A stretch of 64,000 nucleotides of DNA from Candidatus Woesebacteria bacterium. GTDB lineage: Bacteria > Patescibacteriota > Microgenomatia > UBA8517. The DNA is taken from NCBI GenBank assembly GCA_020060845.1, contig JAGUZK010000045.1, positions 8,685 through 72,684 of the forward strand. The letters run 5' to 3'. Made by a program: the position numbers and the translations under genes. Shown one piece after another: positions 14,170-35,787 of this stretch. Under the pieces are notes generated by a model. That model worked only from the letters and a program-made list of their open reading frames with translations, was not told the DNA's origin and made no database searches. Position 1 is the stretch's first letter; every line of letters begins with the position of its first letter.

Positions 14170-14172
14170 AGG

Positions 14173-15229: not shown

Positions 15230-15231
15230 AG

Positions 15232-16646: not shown

Positions 16647-16655
16647 AGAAAGGAG

Positions 16656-17384: not shown

Positions 17385-17506
17385 AACCACCACTGCCTAT
17401 TGGTTAAGATGCCCAACGAGGCTTTTGAAGCTAAATTAAGGTAAACTATGCCACTCCAGGCAGGAAAGTTCCATAAAAGTTAACACGGGAGGCTACTTTC
17501 GGTAAC

Positions 17507-20500
17507 TTATTTAATTCCTTTCTTCATAAGCTGGATGTTTTCATCTGCCCTTTGTTCCTCAAATTTAATGTTGTCATCTAAATACTTTTCATAGCCCTTA
17601 ATAAAAATCTGTAGGGTTGGATTCTTATCTTCCTTCCAGGGTTGAATCTCATCTTTTTTTCGCTTGTAGGCATCCTTCACTCCGTATTCTCCTGTTACTA
17701 CTCCTGTTTGAGAAAGAATGATAAACATTTCGCTTCGATATTCCCTATATAATTTGTTGCCTGTGTTTTGAAGAAATTTCTTAATGAAAGCCTTTGATAC
17801 TTCGTGGAGAAACGGTTCGCCTTTATAAGCTCTCAAAATTGAAAGAACTAAAAGTGCGTTGCGTTTACCACCCTGTTTTATTAAATCTAAAAGATAAGTT
17901 TCTAGCTTGCCGTTAAAAGAGGGAAAAATTGCTCTCAATAGATTACTTGCCTCAAAATGATACAGCCAATCTTTTTCCGAGAACCATTTTAATATCTCTG
18001 TAATTACGACTTTCTCAGATTGAGCCAAGTCTTCCCGAATTTCATGAAAATCTAGTGGAATAGCATCATATCTGTAGCGTTCTTGTGTTTTTAGATGATG
18101 AGTAACTCTCTCAAAGAAGAAACCTATTACTTTTTGAGGATATTTTTTTATAATTGGTTTTAAGATTTCTTCGACATGATAATCCACAGAAGAGTGGAGA
18201 ATTAAACTTTTTAGCACGGTATTGTAATCTTGACTCTTAAATGTCTCCAAAAGAGAATAATCTCTTACCCACAATCTTGTTGCCCAACTATCATCCTTGA
18301 TTTTAATTAACTCCTGCAGTGTTAAGATGAATATTTGCTTAAGTTGATTAGAATCACTATGCTTTTCCATGCAAACACGCAGGATGTTAAACATAGCATT
18401 TTTGTCTTTTGATCCAATTACCTTCTTAAATATCAGATTAAGCAGATCTAAATCTAGAGTATCGGTGTAGGTGAACAAATAACTCAACACAAAAAGGTGC
18501 CTACCTCTTTTTGACCATTCGATCGCCAACTTCTTAGCTAGGGGTTTTTTGCTACTTTCCCATATACCAGCCAGTAAGTGGATAAGGAAAAACTTCATTT
18601 CTTTTTCGTGTTTTGTCAGCAGTTCAATTGCAAATTCTGGTTTATCTTTACCCAGCCTGTGCAGGAAGATATTGAAGTATTGAAACTTGCCAGCATCCAC
18701 ATCTGTATATTCCTTGGCAATAGAGATAATCCTGTTTAACCATTCCTTCCGAGTTTCATCATTGATATTCTGAATAAACTTATTGATCTTGTTTTCTCGT
18801 TGTTCTTTTGCTTTTTTCCAATCCAATTCCTCATCAAACTTATAATCGTAGCCAAAAAAGACTTTGAACATGTTGTATTCTTTATCTGAAGCTATTCTTG
18901 TTTCTAACTCGCTTATCTTAGGAAGTCTATCCTTACCGTATCTTTTAACAAACCAGTGTGCCTGTTCTTCAATCTCTTTAATAAGTTGAGCATCGCTATC
19001 TGGAAATATCGACAAATAAAACTCTATAATTTTATTTGTATCATTTACTACTAAATCTTCTAACTCCTTGCTGTAATTACCTCTACTTGGCGTCCTAGTC
19101 GCCTCGTTTAATGACAGAAGTATTTCTTTTCTAACTTGAACATCTTTTGAGCTTGTATAAAGTTTCTTTAAGATTTCTATTGTGCGTCCCCTTATTTTTT
19201 GAAGTAATTCTGATGGCTTGAGAGAACCAAACGAAATTGTAAATGTCTTATAGTCAGACATTGAATGACCTTCATATTCTGGGTTTAACAACTCTTTGGC
19301 TATTATGTTAATTACTTCTTGATTTTTTATTTTTTTGCTATCGCTCCACTTTTCTAGTTCATCCAAGGTAGTGCCTTGAGCTAGATAACCAATATACTTT
19401 AAGGCATAAAGGTTATATTCAACTAAGGATTTAATCGCTTCGATTGCTTTTTTCCTATACTCTTCTTTCTCGGCAAGGTGCGTAAGCAAATCCAAAACTT
19501 CTTTAGGTTTGTGATATCTTACCTCTTTCAAGAGATCAATAACTTTAAGAATTACATCTTGATTCGATTTTCCCTTAAACTTCCCAAGTTTGCTTTTATA
19601 TTCTTTCTGGGGAAGGGGTTTTGCGTTTATGAGAGCCTTAGAAATCTTAATAACCTGGTCTGGAACTCGGAATGCGTATTGTTCAAGTATCTCTAAATTG
19701 GCACAAATATCATCATTGTTAGTCGGAGTTTTTGTAATAAAATTAAGTAATCCTATTGACTCTTTTTGTAAGAATTTGGTTGCCTGTTCTGTCTTAGCAA
19801 GTTGTTCTCGTATACGAGCCTTTTCCTCTTTCGAATCAAAGAAGCTATCTATATGCTCAGGTGAGGTATCGCTAATCAGTTCGAGGAGAGACTCCATGCC
19901 TATTTGTTCATTTTCAACAAGATACAAATTGGGTGTGCTGATAATTATCTCCTTATCTAATAATTTTTGGATAATTACGGTAATTTCTTCTTCTGATACT
20001 CTTAATATCTTGCTAAATATGGCAGCCACTTTTCCTTTAGGTATGGCTCTAATAAGATAAAGAAGCCCTACGCATTTAACTGTATTTTCTTCAAATGATC
20101 TCGCTAGGTCTGTTAGCGACTCACTCAACTCACGATAACTTTGACTCTTTGCAAATTGCTGCCATCGTCCATTTAGCTCACTGGAGTTATCTCCAATTTC
20201 CCTACCTGTCAAGTCAAGTGTCCTTCCTTTTGTGTCCGAGTGGAGTTTTAAGGATTTTTTTGTTTTCTCATCAAAAAAGAACCAATATGTTTTTTGAGCG
20301 GTTGTATCCACAACAAAAAGTAGGGTTGGAACACTGGAGTTAACAAGATAATCTATAACTGACCGCTTGCAGAAGTATTTGTTGTTCTTAATAGATTTTT
20401 TACTCTTTTGTTGGTAGTGGAGGTATTTCTCTAAATATCTTCCCCTGCCGTCCCTTAGGCGGATTTCTCCGTCAATATCTGGAGTTTTACCGTTAAACGG

Positions 20501-20590
20501 ATTTACTGAAAAATATGACTCGTCGAGAGAGGTCTGAAGAATTTTGCTACCCTTTTCATCAATCGTGTCTTGTTGAGTATATTTGCTCAT
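17507..20590 (-). CDS. large protein: DUF4365-like PD-(D/E)xK N-terminal domain + long alpha-helical (HEAT-like) repeat region; last gene of the Type III R-M operon
   Basis: 1027 aa. The N-terminal ~130 aa (PDIDGEIRLRDG...YLHYQQKS) match my recollection of the DUF4365 nuclease-fold pattern (DxD...QxK). The rest is helical with no NTPase motif. It starts 7 nt downstream of res. Confidence 0.6.
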   Translation of the reverse strand: MSKYTQQDTIDEKGSKILQTSLDESYFSVNPFNGKTPDIDGEIRLRDGRGRYLEKYLHYQQKSKKSIKNNKYFCKRSVIDYLVNSSVPTLLFVVDTTAQKTYWFFFDEKTKKSLKLHSDTKGRTLDLTGREIGDNSSELNGRWQQFAKSQSYRELSESLTDLARSFEENTVKCVGLLYLIRAIPKGKVAAIFSKILRVSEEEITVIIQKLLDKEIIISTPNLYLVENEQIGMESLLELISDTSPEHIDSFFDSKEEKARIREQLAKTEQATKFLQKESIGLLNFITKTPTNNDDICANLEILEQYAFRVPDQVIKISKALINAKPLPQKEYKSKLGKFKGKSNQDVILKVIDLLKEVRYHKPKEVLDLLTHLAEKEEYRKKAIEAIKSLVEYNLYALKYIGYLAQGTTLDELEKWSDSKKIKNQEVINIIAKELLNPEYEGHSMSDYKTFTISFGSLKPSELLQKIRGRTIEILKKLYTSSKDVQVRKEILLSLNEATRTPSRGNYSKELEDLVVNDTNKIIEFYLSIFPDSDAQLIKEIEEQAHWFVKRYGKDRLPKISELETRIASDKEYNMFKVFFGYDYKFDEELDWKKAKEQRENKINKFIQNINDETRKEWLNRIISIAKEYTDVDAGKFQYFNIFLHRLGKDKPEFAIELLTKHEKEMKFFLIHLLAGIWESSKKPLAKKLAIEWSKRGRHLFVLSYLFTYTDTLDLDLLNLIFKKVIGSKDKNAMFNILRVCMEKHSDSNQLKQIFILTLQELIKIKDDSWATRLWVRDYSLLETFKSQDYNTVLKSLILHSSVDYHVEEILKPIIKKYPQKVIGFFFERVTHHLKTQERYRYDAIPLDFHEIREDLAQSEKVVITEILKWFSEKDWLYHFEASNLLRAIFPSFNGKLETYLLDLIKQGGKRNALLVLSILRAYKGEPFLHEVSKAFIKKFLQNTGNKLYREYRSEMFIILSQTGVVTGEYGVKDAYKRKKDEIQPWKEDKNPTLQIFIKGYEKYLDDNIKFEEQRADENIQLMKKGIK

Positions 20591-20597
20591 TTCTCAT

Positions 20598-22916
20598 TCA
20601 ATTGACTGTATATGCGCTACTGATAATAGCGTCAAAACTGTTAATTCTGTTTACTGCCGTATGGGGCAAGAGTTTATAGATCCACTTCTTCTTAGTCGCT
20701 TCAGAGGCTATCTTGCACCATTCTTCTGCCTGCTTTGCCTTTTCCAAAACCTCTGGGTCTTTTTTGTCGAGTTTGCTTTTGTCTTTTACTTCTACCAAGT
20801 AATTGGCATCTTTTCTCTCGACAATAAAATCTGGGTTATAGTTGCCGTAAATATACTTAATTGGTAGTTGTCCGTTTCTAAGCCTTACCCAACTAATAAC
20901 TGTTTTGTCTTTCTCTAAGGAATCTGCTAGTAGTTTCTCTTGTGTCGAATCAAAAACATAAGCAGGGTAAACACTTTTGTTATAACCCTCGATGATATTG
21001 CCTCTAGACTCAGTTTCGCTTACTTCGTCTTTATTTAATGGCACTGCTGAGGCTTTTACCACTTTCATGTATGGCTCAAAAGGAATTTCTTCATCCACCA
21101 CTTGATACTCAATCCTTGTTTGCTCATCCAGCTTTTCTCGCAGCTGGGGTAAGATATCATTCAGAATTGTCTGCTCATGCAGTTTTACGAGTTCCGATAG
21201 TTCTTTCCCTTTAACTTGAAGTTGATCGAGATAATGTTTAACTAATCTTTGCAAGACAGCCTTGAAAGAAATATCAAATTCAGACATCTCAAGTAGAATG
21301 AGTCTAACAATCCTATTAACTGGATTAATTTCTTCCTTTACTTCGATGTCTCCTGCTTCTTCTGTTTGCCTGGAAACAATATCTGCTTTAATAAGTTTTG
21401 GTTTAATTTTCTTTAACTCCTCTAGGCGCAACTTTATTGGAAAGAACTCCAATTTATTGCTTGAATATACTCTTGCTTCAACAGATGGAATTTTAATCCA
21501 AAGTTTTTTGTTTTCAATTGGCTTAATTTCAACTGTTTTTAATTCCTCTTTCTTTTCTGCCTTTTTAACCCCAAGCCCTTCTGCTACTTCATGGGCAACT
21601 GCCACCACTCTGGCAAAATTGTCGTGAGAGATAATATCCAGGGAATCCAGCTCTTCAACGCCCGTTAGCTCGCCAAAGGGCAATCTAAGCCCCCTACCAA
21701 TGGTTTGCTCGATAAGAGTCCTACTGATTGAGGCCCTGAAGGGGATGATGGTATAGACATTTTTAACATCCCAGCCTTCTTTGAGTTTGTCCACATGAAT
21801 GACAATCTCATTTTTATTAACTGGGAATGGTTCTTCTAAACGGAGCAGTTGATGAATAGAGTCAACTTCACTTTCGCTAGTTACCAATAGTGTTTTATCC
21901 TTGTAATAGCCATCAAAGAAATCGTCACTTTCAACCATTGTTTTAACATCTTTGGCGTGTTGGATGTTTCTAGTCGTTATAAGGGTGATGGGCAATACAA
22001 AGGGGAGTTTGTTATTTTTACAGTATTCTTCGATTAAAGCCTTCTTTTCTCTGTGCCTTCTTATTCCATCCTCAAGTTTGACTAGTTCGAGGTCGCCTTT
22101 ATAGGTATAGTCATCGCTTCGAGCTATGACATAAGGAATTTTGATGTAACCGCCTTTAGCGCCGTTACCGTCATGTAAGCTCGCCAAAGCCTTTTTAGAA
22201 TCGTTTATAGCGTCTGCCAGTGTATAAGAATAGACAACATTGTTCTCGTTGGCTGGTGTAGCCGTGAACTCCAGTCCTAGTTCTGGTTTCAGATGGTTTA
22301 TTGCCTTGATTGACTTTACCCCTCGATAACGGTGACTTTCATCCATTAAAATAACTAGATCTTTTTGTTGGAGAAGTTCAGCAAAGCTCGATCCTAGAGT
22401 TTCTTGATAGCGGTGAAATCTAAACTCAACATCAGTTCGTTCATTGAAAATCTTTTGGATGTTGAAGACATAAATGTTAACCGCATCAAAAAGCTGGTTG
22501 CCAAAGTTAGCGTAGGTGTAATTTTCACCTGTGATTAAATTAAACATCGGAAAGTCGGTTAAACCGTCTAGGACATATTTTTTACTCGAAGGAGTAAAGT
22601 TGTCGATTGTTTTTGTATAAATTGTTTCTCCTGGAGTTAGAATAAAGAAATCTTTTAATCCCTTCGTGTAGTAAAGATAAGCGATCATTGCAGCCATTAG
22701 CCTGGTTTTGCCCACGCCTGTTGCTAGCGCAAATGTGAATGAAGGAAATTCAGTATCAAATTTGATATTACCAACTAATCTTGCCTCAATATCTTCAAGT
22801 TTATCTTTGCCGAGCTTTATTCCTGAGATGATTGAGTCAAGTTTAACAAGAGAAAGTTCTTGAGGCTTTCTTAAACTTAATTCCTTAGTTAATTTTTCGA
22901 TAATGTTCATACTCAT
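20598..22916 (-). CDS. res: Type III restriction enzyme Res subunit
   Basis: 772 aa. SF2 helicase motifs (ATGVGKTR, DEAH-like MDESHRY) and a C-terminal PD-(D/E)xK motif (PDFIV...LVEVKD). Confidence 0.85.
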   Translation of the reverse strand: MSMNIIEKLTKELSLRKPQELSLVKLDSIISGIKLGKDKLEDIEARLVGNIKFDTEFPSFTFALATGVGKTRLMAAMIAYLYYTKGLKDFFILTPGETIYTKTIDNFTPSSKKYVLDGLTDFPMFNLITGENYTYANFGNQLFDAVNIYVFNIQKIFNERTDVEFRFHRYQETLGSSFAELLQQKDLVILMDESHRYRGVKSIKAINHLKPELGLEFTATPANENNVVYSYTLADAINDSKKALASLHDGNGAKGGYIKIPYVIARSDDYTYKGDLELVKLEDGIRRHREKKALIEEYCKNNKLPFVLPITLITTRNIQHAKDVKTMVESDDFFDGYYKDKTLLVTSESEVDSIHQLLRLEEPFPVNKNEIVIHVDKLKEGWDVKNVYTIIPFRASISRTLIEQTIGRGLRLPFGELTGVEELDSLDIISHDNFARVVAVAHEVAEGLGVKKAEKKEELKTVEIKPIENKKLWIKIPSVEARVYSSNKLEFFPIKLRLEELKKIKPKLIKADIVSRQTEEAGDIEVKEEINPVNRIVRLILLEMSEFDISFKAVLQRLVKHYLDQLQVKGKELSELVKLHEQTILNDILPQLREKLDEQTRIEYQVVDEEIPFEPYMKVVKASAVPLNKDEVSETESRGNIIEGYNKSVYPAYVFDSTQEKLLADSLEKDKTVISWVRLRNGQLPIKYIYGNYNPDFIVERKDANYLVEVKDKSKLDKKDPEVLEKAKQAEEWCKIASEATKKKWIYKLLPHTAVNRINSFDAIISSAYTVN

Positions 22917-24580
22917 ACTTTAAACTTTTTTAATAAAACATCGGGAATTTTTCTAACTTCGACATTTTCTGGTAACTTAATTTTACTTGATATTGTTTTG
23001 GCATAGATAATAAGATAATCAGCTTTGTCGCCAACTTCTCGCACTATAGCATTTACATAATCCTGACTAAGATATTGTTCAGTTACATGGGCGATAGTTC
23101 TTCCTGAAATACCATGTAGGGCATTATCTGGATTAAGGAGTTTGAACCCTTCAACTTTCAGAACTGCCCGAATAAGATCTCCGTTGTAGACCTTTGGATT
23201 TAGAACCGTTAGCCTCAAATCATCATCGGCTACAAATAGACTGTCTCCCAGCTCAAAATATTTGAAACCGCCCCCACCTTTCCATCCAACTTCTTTACTG
23301 ATACCGCTTTGATCTTCTCCTGAAATCACTCTTTTCAAGCGGGGGATGATATGAGTTTTTGCATGCTCACCCAACTCTACCATTATCCATTTCCTACCCA
23401 TCTTATGAGCTACTGCACCCGTTGTGCCTGAACCTGCAAAACTATCCAAAACAATATCTCCTGGTTTTGTAGCCAATTCTATAATTAATTTGATTAAAGC
23501 CTCTGGTTTTTTGCTCTGCTTAAACTCAACTCCTCCTTCAAGGTGAAGAGCTGCATTTGGGAATTTCCATATGTTCGAAAGTCGCTGTTTTTTGATCAGT
23601 GTTCCATCTTTCTTTTTTTCAACAACTTCTTTTAACCAGGCGACTATACGCCCATTTAGAAAGTAAGTCTTGATAAGTTGCCCTGCATATTTTCCTTTTG
23701 TCGGGATATATTCGATGTAAGACAGTCCTTTTTGGGGTATCTCTGGTCGAATTTGTAAAATTGTCCCACCGCTTGGGTTATAGTCAGCAAAAACATTGTT
23801 AAAATGCTTGTAATAATCATCTATAGAGTCGCTCGTCCTAAACTTCTTGATCTCGTAATTCTCACATTTATATATCTTAATTTCTCCGATATTCAATCTT
23901 TGAATTGTTTTGATAAGTTTTGACTTGCCTGGATTTAATAAGGCTTTGTTATATCCTTTGACAAAACCTTCTATCTCCACTTCTGTCATCGTTTGTAAAG
24001 TACCTTCTTCTCTAAGAAGTTTATAGTCCTTGGCATAAACAAGGATGTATTCACTAACATCAAAAATTAAACTTTGTTGTCCTACTCCAGCCACATCTTT
24101 TACCTGAACTGTAATAAAGGATACAAAATTATCATCTCCAAACTTTTCATCCATAATCATTTTCAATCGAGCGAATTCCCTGGAATCAATATGCACAAAT
24201 ATAAGACCCCTTTTATTTAACAGTTTATGAAGTAAGTCGATTCTATCCCTCATCATTGTCAGCCAAATAGAGTGTTCTAAACCGTCATCATAAAATTCAA
24301 AAGCAGCACCAGTATTAAATGGGGGATCGATATAGATAAGTTTTATCTTTCCTTCATAATCGGGAAGAAGGGCTTTTAACGCTAAAAGATTGTCTCCTTT
24401 TATTAAGATGTTTTCTGTATTTTTATCACCATAGACTGCTTTCTCTAGAAGAATGCGAGGCTCTGAGACCCTGGGGTCTTTTTTATCTACCCATTGATAT
24501 TTTTTCTTTTCAGGATCATAGTAAAGACTTTTGTCTTTGTTATACCAGGTTAATTCTAATTTTTTACTTTTTTGAGACAT
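22913..24580 (-). CDS. mod: Type III DNA methyltransferase Mod subunit (N6-adenine)
   Basis: 555 aa with motif IV IYIDPPFNTG and a SAM-binding region; overlaps res by 4 nt. Confidence 0.85.
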   Translation of the reverse strand: MSQKSKKLELTWYNKDKSLYYDPEKKKYQWVDKKDPRVSEPRILLEKAVYGDKNTENILIKGDNLLALKALLPDYEGKIKLIYIDPPFNTGAAFEFYDDGLEHSIWLTMMRDRIDLLHKLLNKRGLIFVHIDSREFARLKMIMDEKFGDDNFVSFITVQVKDVAGVGQQSLIFDVSEYILVYAKDYKLLREEGTLQTMTEVEIEGFVKGYNKALLNPGKSKLIKTIQRLNIGEIKIYKCENYEIKKFRTSDSIDDYYKHFNNVFADYNPSGGTILQIRPEIPQKGLSYIEYIPTKGKYAGQLIKTYFLNGRIVAWLKEVVEKKKDGTLIKKQRLSNIWKFPNAALHLEGGVEFKQSKKPEALIKLIIELATKPGDIVLDSFAGSGTTGAVAHKMGRKWIMVELGEHAKTHIIPRLKRVISGEDQSGISKEVGWKGGGGFKYFELGDSLFVADDDLRLTVLNPKVYNGDLIRAVLKVEGFKLLNPDNALHGISGRTIAHVTEQYLSQDYVNAIVREVGDKADYLIIYAKTISSKIKLPENVEVRKIPDVLLKKFKV

Positions 24581-24581
24581 A

Positions 24582-25421
24582 TCAATCTTTTACTAAACTT
24601 AATGTTTTAACAAAATCAATGAATTTATAACCAAACTCTGTAAGGAATTCTACTTTGCTAGCACCTGAACCAATACCACCATCTTTTACTCCTACTCTAA
24701 ATATTCCAAGAGATAGAAGCTCACTTGATATTTCAGCATATTGGTTTTGTTTCTTCCGTTCTTCTTCAAACTGTGCCTTACTTAGGTTCTTGTCTTGGGA
24801 GATATTGGGAATTCTTGATTTAACAATCTCGCTATTAGGATTAAATTCTTCATAAATCCAGTGCATGATAACCTCAGAGTCTGGTTTCTGTCTCATAGTA
24901 AGTTCTTCCCACCACTCAACACTACCTTCATGCTTTCCTTTCATCTTAGCTACTTCTTCCTTTGCCCATTTTTCTTTCCTAGGGATAATAACCTCAGATA
25001 TAAACTTTAAATACTCAAGAGATTCTAATGAAATTTCCTGAGCCACTCGATAAAACCTTTCTAGATTTATTAGATGCCTATCTTCTGCTGAAACATAACC
25101 ATCTAGATAAATTTGCTGTATGAGTTTTCTTTTCTTTATTTCTCTGGTTCTTATTAATGCTTCAAAAGTTATTGCTAATGACTGTTGAAATTCTTGAGAG
25201 CTTAATATTTCTTCCTTAAGTTGGGGAACATGTTTTTTTAATAGATTCCAAAATTCTTTACCTTCATCTGGATATAAGTCAAAAAAAGACCAAACTGCAA
25301 CTTTGCAAAAAAATAAAGATCCTCTCGTGTAAGGATTAGGAGGAAGATTTTTCTCTATTTCATCCATTAAAGCTAAAAAAGTATTTTTTGTCACAGCTTT
25401 CAATGTTTTAGATATTTTCAT
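24582..25421 (-). CDS. hypothetical protein (operon member, unknown function)
   Basis: 279 aa, translationally coupled (1-nt gap to mod, 4-nt overlap with HTH gene). Confidence 0.5.
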   Translation of the reverse strand: MKISKTLKAVTKNTFLALMDEIEKNLPPNPYTRGSLFFCKVAVWSFFDLYPDEGKEFWNLLKKHVPQLKEEILSSQEFQQSLAITFEALIRTREIKKRKLIQQIYLDGYVSAEDRHLINLERFYRVAQEISLESLEYLKFISEVIIPRKEKWAKEEVAKMKGKHEGSVEWWEELTMRQKPDSEVIMHWIYEEFNPNSEIVKSRIPNISQDKNLSKAQFEEERKKQNQYAEISSELLSLGIFRVGVKDGGIGSGASKVEFLTEFGYKFIDFVKTLSLVKD

Positions 25422-25612
25422 TTTTTCTTTTTATTTAAAAAGATTTTTATTTTGTTAGGATCATATCTTCTATCTCCTCGTTTATTAATTCTAACAGCCT
25501 TGAGTTTGCCATCCTTATCCCATCTGCGTAAGGTTTCGGCATGCACATTTAAGATTTCTGCTGCTTGTTTTATGGTTAGGAGTTTTGGTAAATCAAATTT
25601 ATTTTTACTCAT
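25418..25612 (-). CDS. excisionase-family HTH DNA-binding protein
   Basis: 64 aa: LTIKQAAEILNVHAETLRRWDKDGKLKAVRI. Confidence 0.55.
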   Translation of the reverse strand: MSKNKFDLPKLLTIKQAAEILNVHAETLRRWDKDGKLKAVRINKRGDRRYDPNKIKIFLNKKKK

Positions 25613-25614
25613 AT

Positions 25615-27420
25615 TTAATGTTGACTATTTAATTTTGTTGCTATGGCTTCTTGTTCATCGTATAGAGCTTTGTCCTGATCAATCATTTTCTGCTCGGCTG
25701 CTGTTAGCCATTGATTAGACTCCATCCTTGTAACGATTGCCGAAATATTAGCGATTCTTGTCGATATTATCTCATTAATTCTATCAATATCGCTTTTATT
25801 TTTCTCATAAAATTCTTTGTATTCTTTTAACTTTGCCCAACCTGGTTGAATTTCTTTTAATCTTTCAAGTGAAGTTCTCCAACTATCTATTACTTCTTTT
25901 GAATAGTTGGGTGGTACATAACCTGCAAAATGCTGAACGATTACTTGAGTGGGGCAACCATTGATTTCTCCTTCTACCTCAGCGATGCCTACCTCTTGAT
26001 AGGTTTTATCTGTTAAAAATTTTTTGGATTCTGGAAACTGGAATTGGTTGTCAATTAACTCTTCTGCTTCGTAATAACCCTGTGTAGGTGCTTCACCCCA
26101 AACAATATTGGAGTAATTAGTCTCCCTCATAGCCTTTTCCATTGTGTAACCACTTCTTGTTGCCTCAAAGGAGAAATCGTCAAACTTTAAGATTGTCTCG
26201 CCTCTTTTTTGAGCCGACAGTTCAAGTTTTGGTTGGTATTTTAGTTCTCTTGCACCTGCCTCTTTTCGCTTTTCGTTAAGAAGTGTTAAGTATTTTTCTT
26301 TATCAAGTTTTATCTTTGAGGATTCATCAAAATCTCTTGAGGTATCTCGCCAGTATTTAGCAAGATCACCCTTTTGATCTTTAAGGGGCAAGACATGATT
26401 GACAGCGCTAATCTCAACAAACCCAATTTCTCTTGAATCTCCACTTCCTTTGCGATTGTCTCCCATTACAAAAATATGGTTTTCAGGGACAATCACTTTC
26501 TGACATTCCTTTAGAAAAGCCTCTCCAAATGTGGATCGAGGCTTTGCGGTATAAGGTTCTTTTAAGGGCTCGCCGTTAAGGTAAACAATTCCTTCTCGAA
26601 GTTCGATACTGTCGCCTGGCACACCAATTACTCTTTTAACCCACCCTGAAGGTTCACCATACATATTTTTGGTCATCTCCCTAATTTTGTCGTTTTCAAC
26701 AACAACAATGTCCCCCCTACCGATTTCATAATTAAAGTATCTTCTGCCCGCAATTACTAATCCGTTAGGGTAGCGTATCATGCCTGGGTAGCCAACAATT
26801 TGTTTTGCCAATTCTTTGGGGTCTTTTCCTTCGCCTTTGGGAAAGGTTGGAAACATTGACCCTGTCCCAGCTATAGCAATTGCTTCTGGGTCGTAACCTA
26901 AAGCCTCCTTAACCATTACCCCAACTAGTGCGTAACCACCAATCCAAATCGGCAAGATAATTGCACCAACAATTAAAAGTGCGATTATTTTTGTCATGAA
27001 AGGTTTGATACTAAACCCTTTAAGTAGCCCCTTGATGCCTGTATGTTTAAGTTTTTTGATAGCTTCAAGGGGTCTGAGGATATAAACCGCCAAATAAAGG
27101 GGTAAAACAGCAAGAATAAAGAAGAGCTTTATAAGAAAAACAAAGATATTTTGCTTTTTCTGAGACCTCTTAGCTATAAGTTGGGCAGTAAAACTAATAA
27201 TCCCCACTAAGAAAGCCAGACATCCTACTAAAACCAACCCTAAAACTAAGAAGGCATAGATATTGGGAGCTTTATCAAAAAGTTCTCTTCTGATACCTAC
27301 AACATAGCCGATCATTACTAACACACTTATGACGCAGGTTAGCCAAATCACAAATGAGATCTTAATGACTTTATTAAAGGGCGCTTTTTTCTCTTGTAGT
27401 TGTGACAGTTTTTTCGGCAT
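25615..27420 (-). CDS. signal peptidase I (S26)-domain membrane protein with extra ~250-aa C-terminal domain
   Basis: 601 aa. N-terminal multi-TM region, then catalytic motifs GSMFPTF (Ser), VKRVIGVPGD (Lys) and GDNRKGSGDSR, then an unassigned C-terminal domain. First gene of the six-gene operon. Confidence 0.7.
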   Translation of the reverse strand: MPKKLSQLQEKKAPFNKVIKISFVIWLTCVISVLVMIGYVVGIRRELFDKAPNIYAFLVLGLVLVGCLAFLVGIISFTAQLIAKRSQKKQNIFVFLIKLFFILAVLPLYLAVYILRPLEAIKKLKHTGIKGLLKGFSIKPFMTKIIALLIVGAIILPIWIGGYALVGVMVKEALGYDPEAIAIAGTGSMFPTFPKGEGKDPKELAKQIVGYPGMIRYPNGLVIAGRRYFNYEIGRGDIVVVENDKIREMTKNMYGEPSGWVKRVIGVPGDSIELREGIVYLNGEPLKEPYTAKPRSTFGEAFLKECQKVIVPENHIFVMGDNRKGSGDSREIGFVEISAVNHVLPLKDQKGDLAKYWRDTSRDFDESSKIKLDKEKYLTLLNEKRKEAGARELKYQPKLELSAQKRGETILKFDDFSFEATRSGYTMEKAMRETNYSNIVWGEAPTQGYYEAEELIDNQFQFPESKKFLTDKTYQEVGIAEVEGEINGCPTQVIVQHFAGYVPPNYSKEVIDSWRTSLERLKEIQPGWAKLKEYKEFYEKNKSDIDRINEIISTRIANISAIVTRMESNQWLTAAEQKMIDQDKALYDEQEAIATKLNSQH

Positions 27421-27474
27421 AACTCAACAAAATTATACAAAAATTAAAGAGAAATTGGTATACTGTTTGTTGCT

Positions 27475-28311
27475 ATGGCAGATAATTTAGAAGAAAGAAT
27501 TAGTGAACGCCTTAAAAAGCTTCAATCAAGAAAGGGATATTATTATCTCCTTACACATCTTGATTACCCATCAAATCAGAAGCGCCTGGACAAAAACGCT
27601 ATAAACGCTCAAATAAAAGTGATTGAGGACGCACTGCCAGAAATTAAAAAACTGATGAAGCAAATCAAAAGATATGTCCCCCATATTTGGGATCAGACTA
27701 AATATGCAGCAGCCTATCTGCTTCTTGGGAAGGCATTTAGTAATCTTGAAACGATAATTCTTCTTGCCCAGAAAGGACACAATCTTGAGATGGTAGATTT
27801 AGCACGCTCTGGAACGGAATCTATTGATTTAGCATTTCTTTTATCTGAAGATAGCCAAAACCAACAACTTGAAAAGTGGTTTAAGGGGAAAATTATCGAA
27901 AATGAAAAAGCCCGAAAGGCTCTTGATAGAGTAATTAACCAACTAAATCCTGCTTCCGTCAAACTACCCGTAGAGGAAATGAAAAAAGAAGTTTATAAAA
28001 CCTATTCCCTCTACACACATAGCAGTTATGCTGCTCTCCTAGATTCAATCGATGTCTTTCATGAAGATTTTGATTTTGAAAGATATGCAGGATTTCACTT
28101 CGCCAGAAGAAACCTACACGCTGTCCAAGACCTGGCTATCAAAATTCTATTACAGCTGAAAAACATCTATGTGCAATGTAAAAATCAAGATTGTCTAAAT
28201 GAAGTCGACGAATTACTAAAACAAATAGGACATATTGATATGACCCCAGGAGAAATCGCCAAAGTTATAAATGAGCATCTTGGTGATAGGAGTAAAAAAG
28301 ATAAAACATAA
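27475..28311 (+). CDS. hypothetical helical protein
   Basis: 278 aa, divergent from the six-gene operon across a 54-bp intergenic region. Confidence 0.5.
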   Translation: MADNLEERISERLKKLQSRKGYYYLLTHLDYPSNQKRLDKNAINAQIKVIEDALPEIKKLMKQIKRYVPHIWDQTKYAAAYLLLGKAFSNLETIILLAQKGHNLEMVDLARSGTESIDLAFLLSEDSQNQQLEKWFKGKIIENEKARKALDRVINQLNPASVKLPVEEMKKEVYKTYSLYTHSSYAALLDSIDVFHEDFDFERYAGFHFARRNLHAVQDLAIKILLQLKNIYVQCKNQDCLNEVDELLKQIGHIDMTPGEIAKVINEHLGDRSKKDKT

Positions 28312-28326
28312 ATTGTTCTGAATATT

Positions 28327-29421
28327 ATGGCTCATTATCGATATTTGAGGGACGAATCTTACTATAATGACCTTTACGATCTCCACACCATCGAGACCTG
28401 TCTTGATTACTACTGGAGCTTGAAAAGTGGCTTTGAAAAGCATCGGGGTGACAAGAGTTTCAAAAAATACTCCAAGAAAAAGTTCGATACCGAGGTTCAC
28501 AAAGTTGTCAGCTATACCATCAACGCTATTAAAATCGACAGGTTTCGGCATAAAAAGGACACCATCCTAAAGTGGATGGACGATGATCGCCAACGCCAGG
28601 ATCGATTAGACAATGCCGTCGAACCGAAGGATATTCTCTGCCATCAATGCAATAGCCCAATGCTCGCTACCACTAAAGACCTCATAGACCACCTAAATAA
28701 ACCCATGAGAGTTCTTTTCTTCTTTGAATGTCCAAACTGCAAGAAAAGACGAGGTGTTTATGATGATGGCTCAGAGTTTGTTTCAAAACCCCCACTCTGC
28801 CCTAAGTGCAAACACGAAGCCAGGCTAACCTACAAAAGAAAGGGGGAGGTAACAATCTGGACGACTTCCTGTTCTTCTTGTGGCTATAAAGAGGTTGACA
28901 AAGACGATTTTAATAAATGGGAAGTCGATAGAAAGAAAAAAGAAGAGCGAGATCGACTCCTACTTAAGGAATATCGTGCTGAGTTTTGTCTCTCTGATGA
29001 AGATGGTCAGGATTGCCTTTGGAGAATTGACCAGATGAAAAGGCTCGTAGACGAAATGGAAGAGCGGGAAAAACACAAAAAAGAATATGACGCAGTAGCC
29101 AACATTAAAAAACTGACTGTTGTCGAGCTTGAAAAGCTCATTAACGACACCATCAATTCTCAAGGTTATATCCGTCTTGAATTGTCCAAGCCTGAGTTTG
29201 GAAAGCAGCTTATCGTTGGTTTTACTGTCCAAGACAGTAACACCTCCCGCCAAGAGTATGACAGTCGCAATGGCTTCAGAAAGCTCGTTCAGGGGGCTTT
29301 ATCAGGCACAAACTGGCGCTTGATGGTCACCAGCCTTAGTTATCGATTGGGTTATCTTCAGGGTAGCCTCAGAGCCTACGAAACAGAGGAAGACATCCTC
29401 ACCCTTGTAAGGAAGAAGTAA
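28327..29421 (+). CDS. hypothetical protein with two zinc-ribbon-like CxxC pairs
   Basis: 364 aa with CHQC...CPNC and CPKC...CSSC; lies 15 nt after the previous gene. Confidence 0.5.
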   Translation: MAHYRYLRDESYYNDLYDLHTIETCLDYYWSLKSGFEKHRGDKSFKKYSKKKFDTEVHKVVSYTINAIKIDRFRHKKDTILKWMDDDRQRQDRLDNAVEPKDILCHQCNSPMLATTKDLIDHLNKPMRVLFFFECPNCKKRRGVYDDGSEFVSKPPLCPKCKHEARLTYKRKGEVTIWTTSCSSCGYKEVDKDDFNKWEVDRKKKEERDRLLLKEYRAEFCLSDEDGQDCLWRIDQMKRLVDEMEEREKHKKEYDAVANIKKLTVVELEKLINDTINSQGYIRLELSKPEFGKQLIVGFTVQDSNTSRQEYDSRNGFRKLVQGALSGTNWRLMVTSLSYRLGYLQGSLRAYETEEDILTLVRKK

Positions 29422-29974
29422 AAAATCTCATTAGTTTTTCAATCGCTATGTTAATTTCAGAGACAGATTGATCTAGTTCAGAGAGATCAACATCTTTTAT
29501 CGCTTTAGAGAAATTAAATGATCGTTGTGGTTTCAAGACCTTAGGTATGTTAATCTTGTGAGTTGTCGAGGGTATTCCCTCTTTTTCGTTCCCATATTGT
29601 ATAAACCACTGAGAATGGACTATATCATTCCTTGCTTTGCAACACTTCATAAGTAACTCTAGTATTTCCTCAAACTCTCTTGCTCTCTTTTTGCCACATC
29701 TTTCAACAACTAAAGACCTGAGTAGTTGAACCTTCTTCTCAAAACCTAAAGGCGAAGTAATTCTCCTTCCTATTTGTTGCTTTACTCCCGCATTTCCCTC
29801 AGCACCAATAAGTTCCCAAATCCAAAATTCAACCATCGCCTCCAAGTGGTTTAGGAGAACAACTACTTCCCCTATCTTTGCAAGATATTCTTTTGTTTTA
29901 GGGTCTTGATTATCAAGAATTTTCGCTGGCATATCCCAATTATAAGCTATTTGTGGGCATGGCAGGACTTTCAT
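29399..29974 (-). CDS. HEPN-like (Rx4H) protein, possible abortive-infection/RNase component
   Basis: 191 aa, all-helical, with KARNDIVH matching the HEPN Rx4-6H motif. Convergent with the previous gene and overlapping its 3' end. Confidence 0.3.
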   Translation of the reverse strand: MKVLPCPQIAYNWDMPAKILDNQDPKTKEYLAKIGEVVVLLNHLEAMVEFWIWELIGAEGNAGVKQQIGRRITSPLGFEKKVQLLRSLVVERCGKKRAREFEEILELLMKCCKARNDIVHSQWFIQYGNEKEGIPSTTHKINIPKVLKPQRSFNFSKAIKDVDLSELDQSVSEINIAIEKLMRFFTSSLQG

Positions 29975-30025
29975 AGCTGATAGGTGGCGGTGTAGAGCGT
30001 ATTATTCTTCCATAATCGTCTCTCT

Positions 30026-30130
30026 GGGTGATAATTCTGACAGTTCTTTTGTTTGGAAGTAAGAAGTTAAATCTGAAGTCTAAAGTTGTGGAATATCTTA
30101 TTCTATCCCTACAGAAAGATTTGACATCGG
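30026..30130. repeat. copy A of ~100-bp imperfect direct repeat (degenerate copy of the 5' end of the 35788..35991 ORF)
   Basis: Core tgaagtctaaagttgtgg...tcttat...cc..acagaaagatttgacat is about 80% identical to 35931-35988. Confidence 0.7.
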
Positions 30131-30280
30131 TTTAAAAAATCACTTAACAGTTAATTTTAGCAAAAATGAGGTTGTTTTGTTTAGGTTTTAGAAGCTTAAG
30201 TTCTAGTACAAAATCTCAAATACGAAATCCGAAGAGTTTAAAGTTATTCTAGAACTAGAACTATTTTATCATTAAGAAAA

Positions 30281-30724
30281 CTACTTACGAAGTGCTTCAA
30301 ATCCCTTCTGAATGTAGGTCTTTACATTGGGAGCAAATTCCATATCTTTTAAGTCTTCTTCAGAAACCCACTTTGTATCAATAGTATCCTCGAGTGGTTT
30401 TGCTTCCCCTTTTTTCCAATGGCAAAGAAAGATAAGTGCAACCACATGTTGTCCAGTTGAACGAATGAAAGTGTTGTTTGTTAAAAGTTCAGCGTGATCT
30501 TCTATTTCAACTCCAGTCTCCTCCTTTACTTCTTTCTTGAGAGTTTCCTCGATGACATTCCAAACATCACCCTTCGTCCTTTCCACCTTCCCACCAGGTA
30601 TCGTCCACTTTCCTGGTTCGTGAGTTTCTTCCCAACTTCTTTGAGAAACTAAAATCTTCCCGTCCTTTTCAACTACTGCGTTAACCAAAACTAGGTGTGT
30701 CTTATCTGTTGCTAAATCTGCCAT
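30281..30724 (-). CDS. NUDIX hydrolase
   Basis: Nudix box GGKVERTKGDVWNVIEETLKKEVKEETGVEIED. Confidence 0.8.
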   Translation of the reverse strand: MADLATDKTHLVLVNAVVEKDGKILVSQRSWEETHEPGKWTIPGGKVERTKGDVWNVIEETLKKEVKEETGVEIEDHAELLTNNTFIRSTGQHVVALIFLCHWKKGEAKPLEDTIDTKWVSEEDLKDMEFAPNVKTYIQKGFEALRK

Positions 30725-30774
30725 AACTAGCGTAATTCTACATCAAATTATCTTAAAGATCCACAACAAACGAC

Positions 30775-31434
30775 TCACTTCATCGCATAAGAACTTATTC
30801 CTTCTTTGTTCACCAGTCTTCCATAATAAACATTGACGAACTTCACTTTCCCGTAATAGCTCATTTCTTCTATTTCACACACACCTAATTTTCTCAGCTG
30901 TTCCTTGTTGCTATTTGCCGCCATGTGCATAGCTAAATTTTTTGTTACCAGTCTACTAACCTTTTCAAAAAGAATTGGTGTCGAAGGAATAGTCTTGGTA
31001 ATGTCGGGGGTTGTTTCAGACAGAGAAAGTCCCAAATCCTCTCTCCATTCAACATCCGAAACTACTACCTGAACACCATTCTTTCTAGCCTGAACAAGCA
31101 TCCCCTCATCTAAAGCATCCCTCACAACAAAAGTTATCTTATCTTCAACCCCAAATGTTCTAGCGTTTACTTTTGCTGCTCTTATCCTTTCTGGATTTAT
31201 ATCGACAGCGTAGATGTGGGGTAAATATTTAGCTAGAAAGACTGTCGTGCCTCCAACCCCGCAACACAACTCCAAGACTGGAACTTTCCCTAATTTTCGA
31301 AGGATGCGTTTTGCTGTATGCTCAGATGCTGATTGATAACTCGTTAAAAGTAAACCCTCTTTATCTCCAATAATAGGAAGGTTTGTTTTAAAACGATATC
31401 TTTTCCCTATTGTATCTATATCTGTGTATCTCAT
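30775..31434 (-). CDS. class I SAM-dependent methyltransferase
   Basis: Motif I VLELCCGVGGTTVFLA, a downstream acidic residue, and a DINPERI motif. Confidence 0.65.
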   Translation of the reverse strand: MRYTDIDTIGKRYRFKTNLPIIGDKEGLLLTSYQSASEHTAKRILRKLGKVPVLELCCGVGGTTVFLAKYLPHIYAVDINPERIRAAKVNARTFGVEDKITFVVRDALDEGMLVQARKNGVQVVVSDVEWREDLGLSLSETTPDITKTIPSTPILFEKVSRLVTKNLAMHMAANSNKEQLRKLGVCEIEEMSYYGKVKFVNVYYGRLVNKEGISSYAMK

Positions 31435-32291
31435 AATCGATATTTATCCTTTATTCTAACAACAACTTCTTTGGGAAGAACACCCCCTTTTAGCATGACA
31501 CAAGCTGCGCCCATCTCCGCACCTATTTGGACACATTCAACAATTGGTCTACCCCTCATATAACCAACCAAAAAACCAGCCTTAAAATTGTCTCCCGCTC
31601 CAGTAGGATCAACAACTCTCTCAACAGGAATTGTCGGAAGTTCCAAGATTGTAACACTCCCTCGATTTCTTTGATAAATTCTAGAACCTTCTGCGCCAAG
31701 AGTTACAATTAAAGCCAATAGCTTTTGATAGTCGTCTCCACTCAAAGTAAGATCTTCAAGATATGCAAGCGCAGCTTGATGTTCCTCTTTGTTCATGAAG
31801 ATAAAAGAACTAAGACCAGCAACAACTTTATCAAAATACCTCGGATCTTCAATTAACATTGGACCTGGTTCGTAAGACAATTCTACCCTTAACGAAGCTA
31901 ATCTTCTCGCCAAACCCGGTGGACAACTTACTAAATGAGCAACATCATAATCAGTTTCTAATCCATTAGGAACTTCCATCCTGTCCATGGTTGGATGACA
32001 TTGATTGTCATACCAAATACTACTTGAAATTGAATTGTCTCTAGATATAACTTCGCAAACAGGTAACTGCTCAACACTGTCAGAAGTTAAAGAAAGGTCT
32101 ATGTCATTTTGAATCAAAAATTCGCGATATCTCGCACTAAATTCGTCTTTTCCTAATACTGACATTATTCCAACCTGAATTCCCAAGCCCCTAGCAGCTA
32201 TTGCTAGATTGGCGGCTGATCCTCCATATTTTTCTTCTCCGTCAATGACATCTTTAGCCAGATTACCAACTATCAACAGTCTTTCTTTCAT
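31431..32291 (-). CDS. PfkB-family carbohydrate/nucleoside kinase
   Basis: C-terminal PfkB signature DPTGAGDNFKAGF and an N-terminal GG motif. Confidence 0.75.
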   Translation of the reverse strand: MKERLLIVGNLAKDVIDGEEKYGGSAANLAIAARGLGIQVGIMSVLGKDEFSARYREFLIQNDIDLSLTSDSVEQLPVCEVISRDNSISSSIWYDNQCHPTMDRMEVPNGLETDYDVAHLVSCPPGLARRLASLRVELSYEPGPMLIEDPRYFDKVVAGLSSFIFMNKEEHQAALAYLEDLTLSGDDYQKLLALIVTLGAEGSRIYQRNRGSVTILELPTIPVERVVDPTGAGDNFKAGFLVGYMRGRPIVECVQIGAEMGAACVMLKGGVLPKEVVVRIKDKYRL

Positions 32292-32911
32292 ATCAATCCC
32301 CTCTCTTTCAAATCCGAGACTATACTTTGAGCAATAAACTCTGTTATTAGTTCTTCTTCCAGTGTTGCATCGATGACTATAATTCTTGGCGAATGTCGCT
32401 CGGCTAAGTCCAAATATCTTCGCCTTTTTTCTCTTTGCCAGTCTAAATCCATGGAGTGAGAATGCAAAGAGTCTTGGCGAGTTTTGACAATTATCTCTGG
32501 ATCAAGATCTAGTAAAAATGTTCTTGTGGTCTCTGGTAAGCAAGCTACAGAACCCTCTGCCTCTTCAAGAGTCATATCTTTATTTGCAATTCTGTTAGAA
32601 TCTTTATATCTATCCCAAATTAAAACCCTATTTGTTCCCTCGTTATCTTTCAAGACAGCTATCATGTCCATAAGAAATAAGGCGTTGCGTTCCCAAGTTT
32701 TCAAACTTCCCATATTATGTCGTAAAAATTCACCCAATGGAGTAGAACTAGGACTTTTACCGACCTGAACAGGTATATTTCTTGAAAGCAGCTCTTTTTC
32801 TAATCTGATAACTTGCGTTGTTTTACCAACACCATCAATACCCTCAAGACTGAAATGGACTCTAGGGATTGGAATCTCAACCATTATAGCAGGGAATCTC
32901 TCTATTGCCAT
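32288..32911 (-). CDS. tmk: thymidylate (dTMP) kinase
   Basis: P-loop SLEGIDGVGKTTQ is the Tmk pattern. Confidence 0.75.
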   Translation of the reverse strand: MAIERFPAIMVEIPIPRVHFSLEGIDGVGKTTQVIRLEKELLSRNIPVQVGKSPSSTPLGEFLRHNMGSLKTWERNALFLMDMIAVLKDNEGTNRVLIWDRYKDSNRIANKDMTLEEAEGSVACLPETTRTFLLDLDPEIIVKTRQDSLHSHSMDLDWQREKRRRYLDLAERHSPRIIVIDATLEEELITEFIAQSIVSDLKERGLI

Positions 32912-34437: not shown

Positions 34438-34441
34438 GGGC

Positions 34442-35068
34442 TTAAATAGATTTCAAGTAATCTTTATAGGTGTTTACATGTTCTGTTAAGTAATTAATAT
34501 CCTCAGGCGTGAAGATTTTGAGCTTTTCGGCAACTTTACACAAACTCTTAAAATTGGAAATTGAGAAGACCTTAACACCCAATTTATCTCCGATTTCTTT
34601 GTCAAAACCATAACTAAAAATCGAATAGAGATTAACCCTACATCCTAAATCTTTGAAAAACTTAACCACCCCCGATACAGTCAAACCAGTCGCGAAAACA
34701 TCGTCTACCACTGCAACCAATGAACCTTTTGTTGGAGTCATACCGACAATCCTCCGTTTGTCGTTATATTTTTTGTTTTCTTTGCGATATAGAATTACAG
34801 GTCTTATGAGCGTATCCGCTATAGCTGAAGCATAATATGTTCCGCCACTCTCAATTCCACATATATAATCTGGTTCATCGCCAATCAGTTCTGACATTTT
34901 TCTCACCAAAAGATGTCTTACCTCATAGATCGGTAATGTGTTCTTGAGGTTTATGTAAATTGGTGAAAATATACCTGGTTTAACCTCAATTGGACAATCT
35001 TTTGAATAGATAACAACTCCTGGAGTTGACAAGAGTGCTGTTTCTACAATTTTATTCGTCTTAGCCAT
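34442..35068 (-). CDS. phosphoribosyltransferase (type I PRTase; orotate/purine PRT-like)
   Basis: PRPP-binding motif LVAVVDDVFATGLT. Confidence 0.7.
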   Translation of the reverse strand: MAKTNKIVETALLSTPGVVIYSKDCPIEVKPGIFSPIYINLKNTLPIYEVRHLLVRKMSELIGDEPDYICGIESGGTYYASAIADTLIRPVILYRKENKKYNDKRRIVGMTPTKGSLVAVVDDVFATGLTVSGVVKFFKDLGCRVNLYSIFSYGFDKEIGDKLGVKVFSISNFKSLCKVAEKLKIFTPEDINYLTEHVNTYKDYLKSI

Positions 35069-35074
35069 AGAGTT

Positions 35075-35135
35075 TACTCACCAGTGAGTAAGCAACAATA
35101 AAGAGGATTATAGTTTTAAAGAAATCTCTTGTCAA
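35075..35135 (-). promoter_or_regulatory. consensus sigma70-type promoter plus 5'-UTR hairpin for the PRTase-guaA-tmk-pfkB-MTase operon
   Basis: On the minus strand: TTGACA (+ strand 35130-35135), a 17-nt spacer, TATAAT (35107-35112), then an 8-bp stem hairpin ttactcac/gtgagtaa (35075-35094) before the start codon at 35068. Confidence 0.5.
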
Positions 35136-35159
35136 CCTTTCGTAAAAATAAATTAATAT

Positions 35160-35750: not shown

Positions 35751-35787
35751 TTAACTGTATTATAACATGTAACAAAGATCCTGCGAA

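Follow-up and report, generated by a model that had tools for sequence, protein, structure and literature searches.

A predicted type I signal peptidase with a CAP-fold extension adjoins interchangeable defence cassettes in a phage-like region of Microgenomates DNA

Why would a gene for a signal peptidase (SPase) stand at the head of what looks like a defence operon? We wanted to answer this question for a 601-aa protein encoded in a 64,000-nt stretch of a Candidatus Woesebacteria contig (JAGUZK010000045.1), where a helix-turn-helix (HTH) gene and a restriction-modification (R-M) system follow it on the same strand. The whole 64,000-nt stretch is called the window hereafter, and it was compared with other contigs, coded as loci L003-L123. 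A first, sequence-only reading had described a protein with intact Ser/Lys motifs, about twice the length of LepB, and had proposed either a TraF-like peptidase or a membrane sensor. The reading that we have come to favour, with moderate confidence, has three parts: the protein would be the working SPase I of Microgenomates with a CAP domain at the cell surface, its promoter and 3' end would be the docking point of defence cassettes, and both would be carried in mosaic phage- or satellite-like DNA. The parts of the gene are the following, in the order of the protein after the upstream region.

25615..27420, minus strand: SPase I-CAP fusion gene, an open reading frame (ORF) of 601 aa matching Peptidase_S26 and TIGR02227
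27421..27474, minus strand: region of the SPase promoter, 5' untranslated region and Shine-Dalgarno (SD) sequence, conserved with L005 and, in L100, fused to the HTH17 coding sequence
26896..27420, minus strand: N-terminal membrane region, aa 1-175, with four hydrophobic helices (AlphaFold2, AF2, secondary structure)
26386..26895, minus strand: S26 catalytic domain, aa 176-345, with the Ser188/Lys262 dyad (invariant residues and Foldseek)
25906..26313, minus strand: predicted CAP/SCP/PR-1-fold domain, aa ~370-505 (AF2 and Foldseek)
25618..25905, minus strand: predicted C-terminal three-helix tail, aa 506-601 (AF2 helices 508-533, 542-567 and 574-599)

The 601-aa protein matched Pfam Peptidase_S26 with an E-value of 2e-27 (PF10502, 96.5 bits for a cutoff of 22.9) and TIGR02227 (sigpep_I_bact) with 92.6 bits for a cutoff of 47. 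All three SPase motifs are present, GSMFPTF at residues 187-193, VKRVIGVPGD at 261-270 and GDNRKGSGDSR at 320-330. When the protein was aligned with 26 full-length homologues (27 sequences), S188, K262 and the GDNRK.S.DSR box were found to be invariant. Box B (G-T-G-S188-M-F-P-T) thus holds the nucleophile serine and box D (V-K262-R-V-I-G-V-P-G-D) the general-base lysine, followed by R263 which is also invariant, while box E (G320-D-N-R-K-G-S-G-D-S-R330) is invariant or nearly so. The AF2 model of the full protein, built on the family alignment, reached a pLDDT of 78. Its catalytic part was matched by Foldseek in the PDB to SpsB (4wvg, E 1.6e-5) and to the E. faecalis SPase EF3073 (4me8, TMt 0.60), and it showed the S26 beta-fold, with low pLDDT at residues 291-305 and 324-327. 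Given the motifs, the Pfam and TIGR02227 scores and the more than 850 homologues described below, the SPase identity is not due to chance.

These comparisons bear directly on the TraF proposal, in which the protein would mature a pilin or another conjugation component of a mobile element. Membership of the S26 family, the mobile context and a weak TraF match (E 3.5e-6) are in line with it. However, three TraF models stayed far below their cutoffs (TIGR02771, 26.7 bits for 100.25; NF010412, 16.5 for 186; NF010459, 15.7 for 156) whereas the SPase I equivalog was passed, TraF proteins measure only ~170-180 aa and have no CAP domain, and no type IV secretion, pilin or relaxase genes were found in the window region or in the surveyed loci. 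Such a role is the least probable of those considered here and can be regarded as effectively excluded. By family membership, the protein is predicted to be an intact type I signal peptidase and not TraF.

Compared with LepB, SipS and SpsB (MEROPS S26A), the window SPase has the same dyad, the same boxes B, D and E, and an anchor directly N-terminal to the catalytic domain. Unlike them, it has three extra N-terminal hydrophobic helices, an insert of ~40 residues after the Ser box and, at its C-terminus, 256 aa which are found in none of these enzymes. This extension (residues ~346-601) agrees in size with the ~250-aa domain of the sequence-only reading, which had left it as a domain of unknown function; that label no longer holds, since the models place there a CAP/SCP fold followed by three helices. 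AF2 predicted an alpha-beta-alpha domain at residues 374-500 and then three long helices at 508-599, and a separate model of residues 344-601 had a pLDDT of 88.8. In the PDB this part was matched to Borrelia BB0689 (4d53, TMt 0.76, E 6e-6, probability 1.0). B. anthracis SCP (4ifa), S. aureus SAV1118, 4h0a, GAPR-1 and the CAP domain of PrgA were also matched, with a probability of 1.0 for 4ifa, 4h0a and GAPR-1, in line with a CAP alpha-beta-alpha sandwich. At the sequence level the resemblance is weak (YkwD, E 4e-5), and the CAP profiles remained below threshold (PF00188, 18.6 bits for 21.1; TIGR02909, 23.4 for 171). Residues E443, E454 and H497 were invariant among the 27 sequences, and a comparison with 25 other loci, drawn from both SPase subtypes defined below, gave 59-80% identity for the tail in 24 of them.

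The predicted domain shares its alpha-beta-alpha sandwich with CAP/SCP/PR-1 surface proteins (BB0689, YkwD-type proteins, SAV1118 and PrgA), and with PrgA also the combination of a CAP domain with long helices on a surface-exposed protein. It differs from these proteins in its fusion partners, a protease and a polytopic anchor, and in a sequence match below the Pfam gathering score. Moreover, the helices of the SPase follow the CAP domain instead of forming the stalk that carries it in PrgA, and an exclusion role like that of PrgA is an analogy only. The CAP domain and the tail may play an accessory part, binding envelope components, ligands or substrates. Annotation of such proteins as signal peptidase I was already known. 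The CAP fusion appears to be new, as we found no description of it in the searchable literature: searches for a fusion of SPase I with CAP, or for a signal peptidase in Microgenomates, returned nothing relevant.

The N-terminal part has four hydrophobic helices, at about 21-43, 55-82, 92-115 and 143-170, within the four to five transmembrane (TM) helices counted before. AF2 gave helices at 10-43, 53-85, 92-104/106-115, 117-134 and 138-174. The third hydrophobic helix is kinked at the invariant P107, and an amphipathic, K-rich helix (117-134) precedes the last one. Over the 27 homologues, the mean net charge was +4.7 for the N-terminus, +0.1 for loop 1, +3.0 for loop 2, +6.3 for loop 3 and -1.3 after TM4. 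The TM helix 143-170 stands directly before the S26 domain, and both the positive-inside tally and the fused CAP domain favour a location of the C-terminal part outside the cell, the CAP domains of the matched structures being those of extracellular proteins. An N-in topology with three TM helices and one re-entrant hairpin would fit best, S26 and CAP lying outside. The anchor would then consist of two TM helices, the kinked re-entrant hairpin, the K-rich amphipathic helix on the cytoplasmic side and the final TM helix, which would put the Ser188/Lys262 domain on the outside of the membrane. Sec signal peptides would be removed there, and the CAP/SCP domain and the three-helix tail would reach further outward.

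To define the distribution of the family, one genome per GTDB species was scanned for SPase-CAP relatives. Relatives were found in at least 410 species, all of the candidate phyla radiation (CPR) type and mostly labelled as Microgenomates groups, among them Woese-, Shapiro-, Roizman-, Gottesman-, Levy-, Davies-, Ames-, Collier-, Beckwith- and Pacebacteria. The more than 850 full-length homologues are 58-80% identical and come from Patescibacteria/Microgenomates wherever a name is given. Some members have a single TM helix and only 445-490 aa; the CAP domain and the tail are kept in all. A contig never carried more than one SPase-CAP locus, even when it was 0.5-1.6 Mb long, and neither the window nor 1.66 Mb of related loci yielded a second S26 ORF. 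The genes next to the SPase are almost never conserved across loci, with the exception of dnaG-rpoD, located 2-8 kb upstream in four lineages. In pairs of genomes with this arrangement, SPase identity was 44-66%, between that of DnaG (38-44%) and that of RpoD (63-82%). Phage or recombinase markers were present at 15 of 80 GTDB SPase loci. The sequence-only reading had doubted that a housekeeping lepB would sit in such an element and had named a sole lepB with orthologues in housekeeping contexts as what would refute its view; this is half answered, as the contexts are mostly non-mobile and include the dnaG-rpoD synteny of four lineages.

The one-copy pattern, the breadth of the family and its mostly non-mobile contexts favour the reading as the Microgenomates SPase I, and on these sequence comparisons the gene product probably serves as the cell's working SPase I, removing Sec signal peptides. 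They have to be weighed against a different explanation, possible though in our view rather doubtful, in which SPase-CAP is an accessory paralogue of temperate phages or satellites that serves the element, a canonical lepB being located elsewhere in the genome. Such a paralogue might process a dedicated substrate (a Sec-exported endolysin or a surface protein), or might act in superinfection exclusion as a CAP domain on a stalk. It would not be expected from one copy in each of at least 410 species with no large contig carrying two, from about 80% of loci without mobile markers, from the dnaG-rpoD synteny, or from conservation over the full length near the RpoD level. No short lepB was seen either in the sampled Microgenomates DNA. 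Short canonical SPases were sought by searching a representative library with the S26 domain, by looking up clusters and by a homology search that started from the 202-aa protein P0173. Apart from rare sequences without a name, the yield was limited to Firmicutes, so that these searches do not inform on paralogy. On the side of an accessory paralogue, two SPase subtypes, set apart mostly by the CAP domain, are distributed in agreement with neither taxon labels nor RpoD identity; the fold search also matched the CAP domain of PrgA; and the SipP proteins, ordinary short SPases on Bacillus plasmids, offer a precedent. SipP and TraF (IncP/Ti) are likewise S26 peptidases on mobile elements. In the window case, by contrast, the carrier is phage- or satellite-like, and the gene is common outside mobile contexts too. 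P0173 itself is a rare single-TM SPase located beside rpoB/rpoC on a CPR-like contig (L108 10001-15238). Behind it come a small ORF and a pair of N6_N4 methyltransferase genes, a second case of R-M genes directly downstream of a signal peptidase.

Then, what are the genes that follow the SPase in the window? The array behind the SPase stop codon consists of the following.

25418..25612, minus strand: HTH_17/MerR-type gene, 64 aa, mad1-like, the cassette leader (Pfam and NCBIfam; PADLOC mad1, E 2.8e-12)
24582..25421, minus strand: 279-aa ORF (p279), replaced by a HEPN_AbiU2 gene in L100; no match in Pfam, NCBIfam, PADLOC or PHROGs
22913..24580, minus strand: type III Mod methyltransferase (N6_N4_Mtase, E 6e-41; PADLOC MTase_III, E 2e-120)
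20598..22916, minus strand: type III Res, with ResIII and endonuclease domains (PADLOC REase_III, E 6e-86)
17507..20590, minus strand: 1027-aa protein with an N-terminal DUF4365/Aga-REase-like domain, the last cargo gene (DUF4365, E 1e-9; PDLC02398, E 1.4e-9)
17412..17491, minus strand: conserved DNA element of ~80 nt at the distal end of the cassette (nhmmer, E 1e-16 to 1e-24)

As previously noted, the SPase is the first gene of a tight, co-directional array: the HTH gene begins 2 nt past the SPase stop (TAA-AT-ATG), and from the HTH gene to the DUF4365 gene, all on the same strand, each gene either shares 4 nt with the next or lies 1-7 nt away from it. Mod and Res, adjacent with a 4-nt overlap, form a type III R-M pair. 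No terminator-like site was present on the minus strand from 27420 to 17507. A HTH_17 gene located 1-2 nt after the SPase stop was also found in 8 of the 71 evaluable GTDB species, in both SPase subtypes, while the other 63 (about 89%) have the SPase with no HTH gene or R-M system behind it.

The cargo behind this leader varies. It is a type III R-M system in the window and L024, a Ppl-like ATPase with a type II R-M system in L005 and L022, and an 860-aa helicase-like protein (c16) with a methyltransferase in L026, L041, L074 and Ch104a (L007/L093), to which a DUF3800 protein is added in Ch104a. Residues 1-50 of HTH_17 were 76-92% identical across cassette loci, and its last 14 aa change with the cargo. 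In L035, the whole cassette, from the HTH gene to the ~80-nt element, is inverted upstream of the SPase and has its own SD sequence; no SPase 3' fragment carried with it was detected by tblastn. The last cargo gene also varies among near-identical strains: the 1027-aa DUF4365 gene occupies this place in the window and L104, and three genes, one with a NucS_C domain, are found instead in L092 (16864-19878). Within Mod itself (22913..24580), about 700 nt are unmatched in L098 (20193-20887), a locus from SRR7867194, before identity resumes at 88%, in strains that are otherwise 99.7% identical. Such a divergence in the middle of the gene suggests that the target-recognition domain was exchanged.

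The ~80-nt element closes every HTH17-led cassette that was sequenced that far (window, L005, L007, L022, L024, L026, L041, L074 and L035). Its core is a run of invariant columns, even though the SPases of these loci are only 54-76% identical to that of the window, and the palindrome GCTTCAGAAGC lies within the element. Ch104a has it twice in direct orientation (L007 6993-7072 and 20718-20799), on either side of the segment made of the 191-, 364- and 278-aa genes, the SPase, the HTH gene and the cargo. The possibility of a structured RNA was rejected, RNAalifold having found no compensatory pairs and Rfam no match, and we treat the element as a DNA site that may be a recombination site. Its 22-nt core gave three matches in IMG/VR, all within unrelated coding sequence; as chance alone would, on a rough estimate, give at least that number, they were discarded.

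A decisive observation for the relation between the SPase and the cassette comes from a deletion variant. L100/L104 is 98.96% identical to the window over 28324..35996 and 99.84% over 20775..24581, and it carries the window's Mod (Mod555), Res (Res772) and DUF4365 (DUF4365-1027) genes, but the SPase ORF is precisely deleted. In L100, from assembly GCA_041890195.1, three genes, for a 208-aa protein, HTH_17 and HEPN_AbiU2, fill the place between the 364-aa gene and Mod, and the SPase is missing. The intergenic region, SD sequence and ATG found there are those of the L005 SPase, joined directly to the HTH coding sequence. The c14 segment of L100 is 90% identical to Shapirobacteria L005 and adjoins flanks that are 99% window-like. 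No similarity was found between p279 and AbiU2, or between the 278-aa and 208-aa ORFs, which indicates that the swapped segments are non-homologous. As the SD and ATG of an SPase are fused to the HTH gene in L100, the SPase promoter region would drive the cassette there. We also looked for a strain with an empty site by searching for the exact NUDIX protein; every contig obtained has the 191-aa gene beside the NUDIX gene.

Could the SPase itself take part in defence, its sensing or proteolytic processing at the membrane serving to activate or regulate the HTH and R-M genes? The 2-nt spacing, the co-directional genes, the lack of a minus-strand terminator-like site and the recurrence of the junction in eight species would agree with this. 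However, the same R-M system is kept without the SPase in the 99%-identical L100/L104 strain, and this indicates that the SPase is not a defence component. Moreover, the L035 cassette has its own SD and lies away from the SPase 3' end, 63 of 71 species have the SPase without a cassette, the cargo is unrelated between loci, and the predicted place of the catalytic and CAP domains is outside the cell, away from defence at the DNA level. A sensor or defence role is therefore very improbable and, like the TraF role, effectively excluded; neither of the two functions first proposed was retained.

In the reading favoured here, the SPase promoter and stop codon would instead be a docking point for an interchangeable defence cassette, composed of the HTH_17 leader 1-2 nt past the stop, the variable cargo and the ~80-nt element. 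With such a docking point, the cassette would be read through from the SPase promoter. To our knowledge this arrangement has no earlier description, although the literature was not searched for one. The leader recalls MADS, since the 64-aa HTH protein matches mad1 and likewise leads a defence locus containing a methyltransferase. Unlike MADS, the cargo of the window is a classical type III Mod/Res pair, and no other mad model matched among the nine other proteins scanned around the HTH gene. Defence hotspots between conserved genes are known from P2/P4 prophages, from the accessory regions of phage-inducible chromosomal islands (PICI) and from the core defence hotspots of Pseudomonas. There, as here, a fixed and bounded position holds different defence systems according to the strain or species, and the window cassette likewise borders on a phage-like element that has integrase (int), xis-like, replication and terS genes. 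Unlike these hotspots, its left boundary is a HTH_17 leader 1-2 nt past an SPase stop, its right boundary is a non-coding element of ~80 nt, its host belongs to the CPR, and neither att sites nor a helper phage were identified.

The region on the far side of the cassette, together with the block upstream of the SPase, contains the following features.

15978..17384, plus strand: two ORFs of 222 and 242 aa on the opposite strand, whose homologues are placed likewise in L022 and L007; no family match
15790..15904, plus strand: LOOT RNA (RF03000), 85.7 bits for a gathering score of 46.4
13181..15522, minus strand: phage-like module (PHROGs), including the next four features
15232..15522, minus strand: DUF5659-like gene
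14501..15229, minus strand: replication initiator O/DnaD-like gene, followed by a 122-aa ORF
13555..14169, minus strand: terS-like gene (phrog_6299 terS, E 4e-14)
13181..13360, minus strand: excisionase/RDF-like HTH (PHROGs excisionase families)
11429..13120, minus strand: large serine recombinase of 563 aa, directly beside ychF where the island ends (Resolvase, Recombinase and Zn_ribbon_recom; phrog_95, E 6e-77)
27475..30194, both strands: block moving with the SPase, with ORFs of 278 aa (plus), 364 aa (Zn-ribbon, plus) and 191 aa (minus) (blastn)

The location in an integrated element, as first described, is supported by the recombinase, excisionase-like, terS-like and replication initiator-like genes at 11429..15229. 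The module also matched phrog_9773 (E 3.5e-26), and in L005 its homologues follow in the same order and continue into a GpA terminase. No capsid, portal or tail gene was matched in the Pfam scan of the flank ORFs or in the PHROGs scan of eight of them. By gene content, the SPase unit is assigned to a mosaic temperate-phage or satellite-like region. The LOOT RNA was found at the same position in L022 (19156-19263) and L026 (20124-20234), with 78-86 bits across the three loci. In all three it sits between regulator-like ORFs and the DUF5659, replication and terS genes, which suggests that this orphan RNA family is linked to phages or satellites of Microgenomates.

On the other side, a block of 4.7 kb (25455..30194) was 98.8-99.2% identical by blastn to L007/L093/L094, and the match to Ch104a ends at ~30194. 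Ch104a is the complete genome, CP055308.1, of a Candidatus Woesebacteria species other than that of the window (a literature search on it gave nothing relevant). Neither the 90% cluster of the window GuaA nor the exact RecR protein was present on the 802-kb Ch104a contig. This mismatch, together with the 99% block, points to a recent exchange between species. The exact SPase protein was found in three upstream contexts, next to NUDIX/GuaA, next to KsgA/SHMT and in a third one. The 364-aa protein (28327..29421, plus strand) that travels with the SPase carries four zinc-ribbon motifs of the CxxC type and matched no family; homologues are encoded in L005 (8217-9320) and L022 (6754-8442), and between the window and L005 its gene is 73% identical at the nucleotide level, the SPase gene 66%. 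In the window, nearly all genes are on the minus strand and GC skew is negative in all 2-kb windows but two (15-18 kb, about +0.04 and 0.00), a bias that resembles the strand disparity reported for the genome of a thermal-aquifer Microgenomates (PMC7143001).

SPase genes were also found on phages. Two IMG/VR contigs of 55-59 kb, IMGVR_UViG_3300038436_000160 and 3300009690_001209, and the L003 and L028 prophages carry one, co-oriented with the late genes and located between a portal-like gene and the scaffold and major head genes. Related phages have other cargo at this position, and between L003 and L090 the SPase is 85.5% identical, less than the portal (94%) or the major capsid protein (MCP, 99.7%). 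Both observations indicate that the SPase is an optional phage cargo, which argues against a paralogue serving the phage, as does the lack of a viral S26 match in BFVD, where phage CAP-domain proteins are present. The first of these contigs (L111/L090/L120, positions 1-41465) and its relatives L112-L123 form a family of phage contigs of 54-62 kb that has tail, lysin, capsid, portal and SNF2/PLD genes in common and variable cargo between portal and scaffold/capsid. The cargo seen there was a C5 methylase with DUF87 and a 727-aa protein, a 1407-aa protein, or an SPase with a methyltransferase.

Several of these results weigh against the favoured reading, and three of them, the SPase deletion in L100, the variety of contexts and the carriage by phages, lean towards the accessory paralogue. 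L100 shows that the SPase can be lost from this locus, and a near-identical strain without it hardly fits a sole and essential SPase, except where a second copy is present. The occurrence of the identical SPase protein in three chromosomal contexts counts against the favoured reading as well. The accessory paralogue also has on its side the 99% nucleotide identity in different species and the mosaic surroundings with a large serine recombinase, terS and a replication initiator. The two viral contigs with an SPase, together with the L003/L028 prophages that have it between portal and MCP, make an accessory, mobile role possible. In addition, a search for att direct repeats at 8-31 kb of the window gave only short, chance-like pairs, besides one that corresponds to a second HTH_17-like gene at ~13.3 kb. 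The promoter and terminator scan was uninformative, its counts being at or below shuffle expectation, and was not used as evidence. Finally, the SPase topology and the co-transcription of SPase and cassette are inferred only.

Altogether, we still favour the working SPase I in a mosaic region that would recombine and move between lineages, the SPase travelling with it and some phages having captured the gene. A bolder proposal, which we hold to be fairly unlikely, is that SPase-CAP, HTH_17 and the ~80-nt element make up an undescribed hotspot of cassette exchange and that SPase-CAP is a phage-carried surface protease benefiting the lysogen. Defence systems would be swapped between the leader gene and the DNA site and expressed from the SPase promoter, and the lysogen would benefit through functions such as the processing of secreted phage or host proteins, or surface exclusion by the CAP domain and the helices.

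These results give a predicted identity to the added half of a protein known in databases simply as signal peptidase I, a half that is conserved across a major CPR lineage. What appeared to be the head of a defence operon would be a docking arrangement for interchangeable cassettes in a phage-like, exchanged region, and the layout of SPase, HTH gene and ~80-nt element is a landmark that can be searched for new defence systems in CPR genomes. The locus also offers rare evidence of recent gene flow, and of the capture of a secretion-pathway gene by phages, in CPR organisms. If SPase-CAP is their only SPase I, its mobility and its loss at the strain level are a puzzle in themselves. The CAP fusion bears on how the surface is built and modified in these ultra-small, probably episymbiotic cells.

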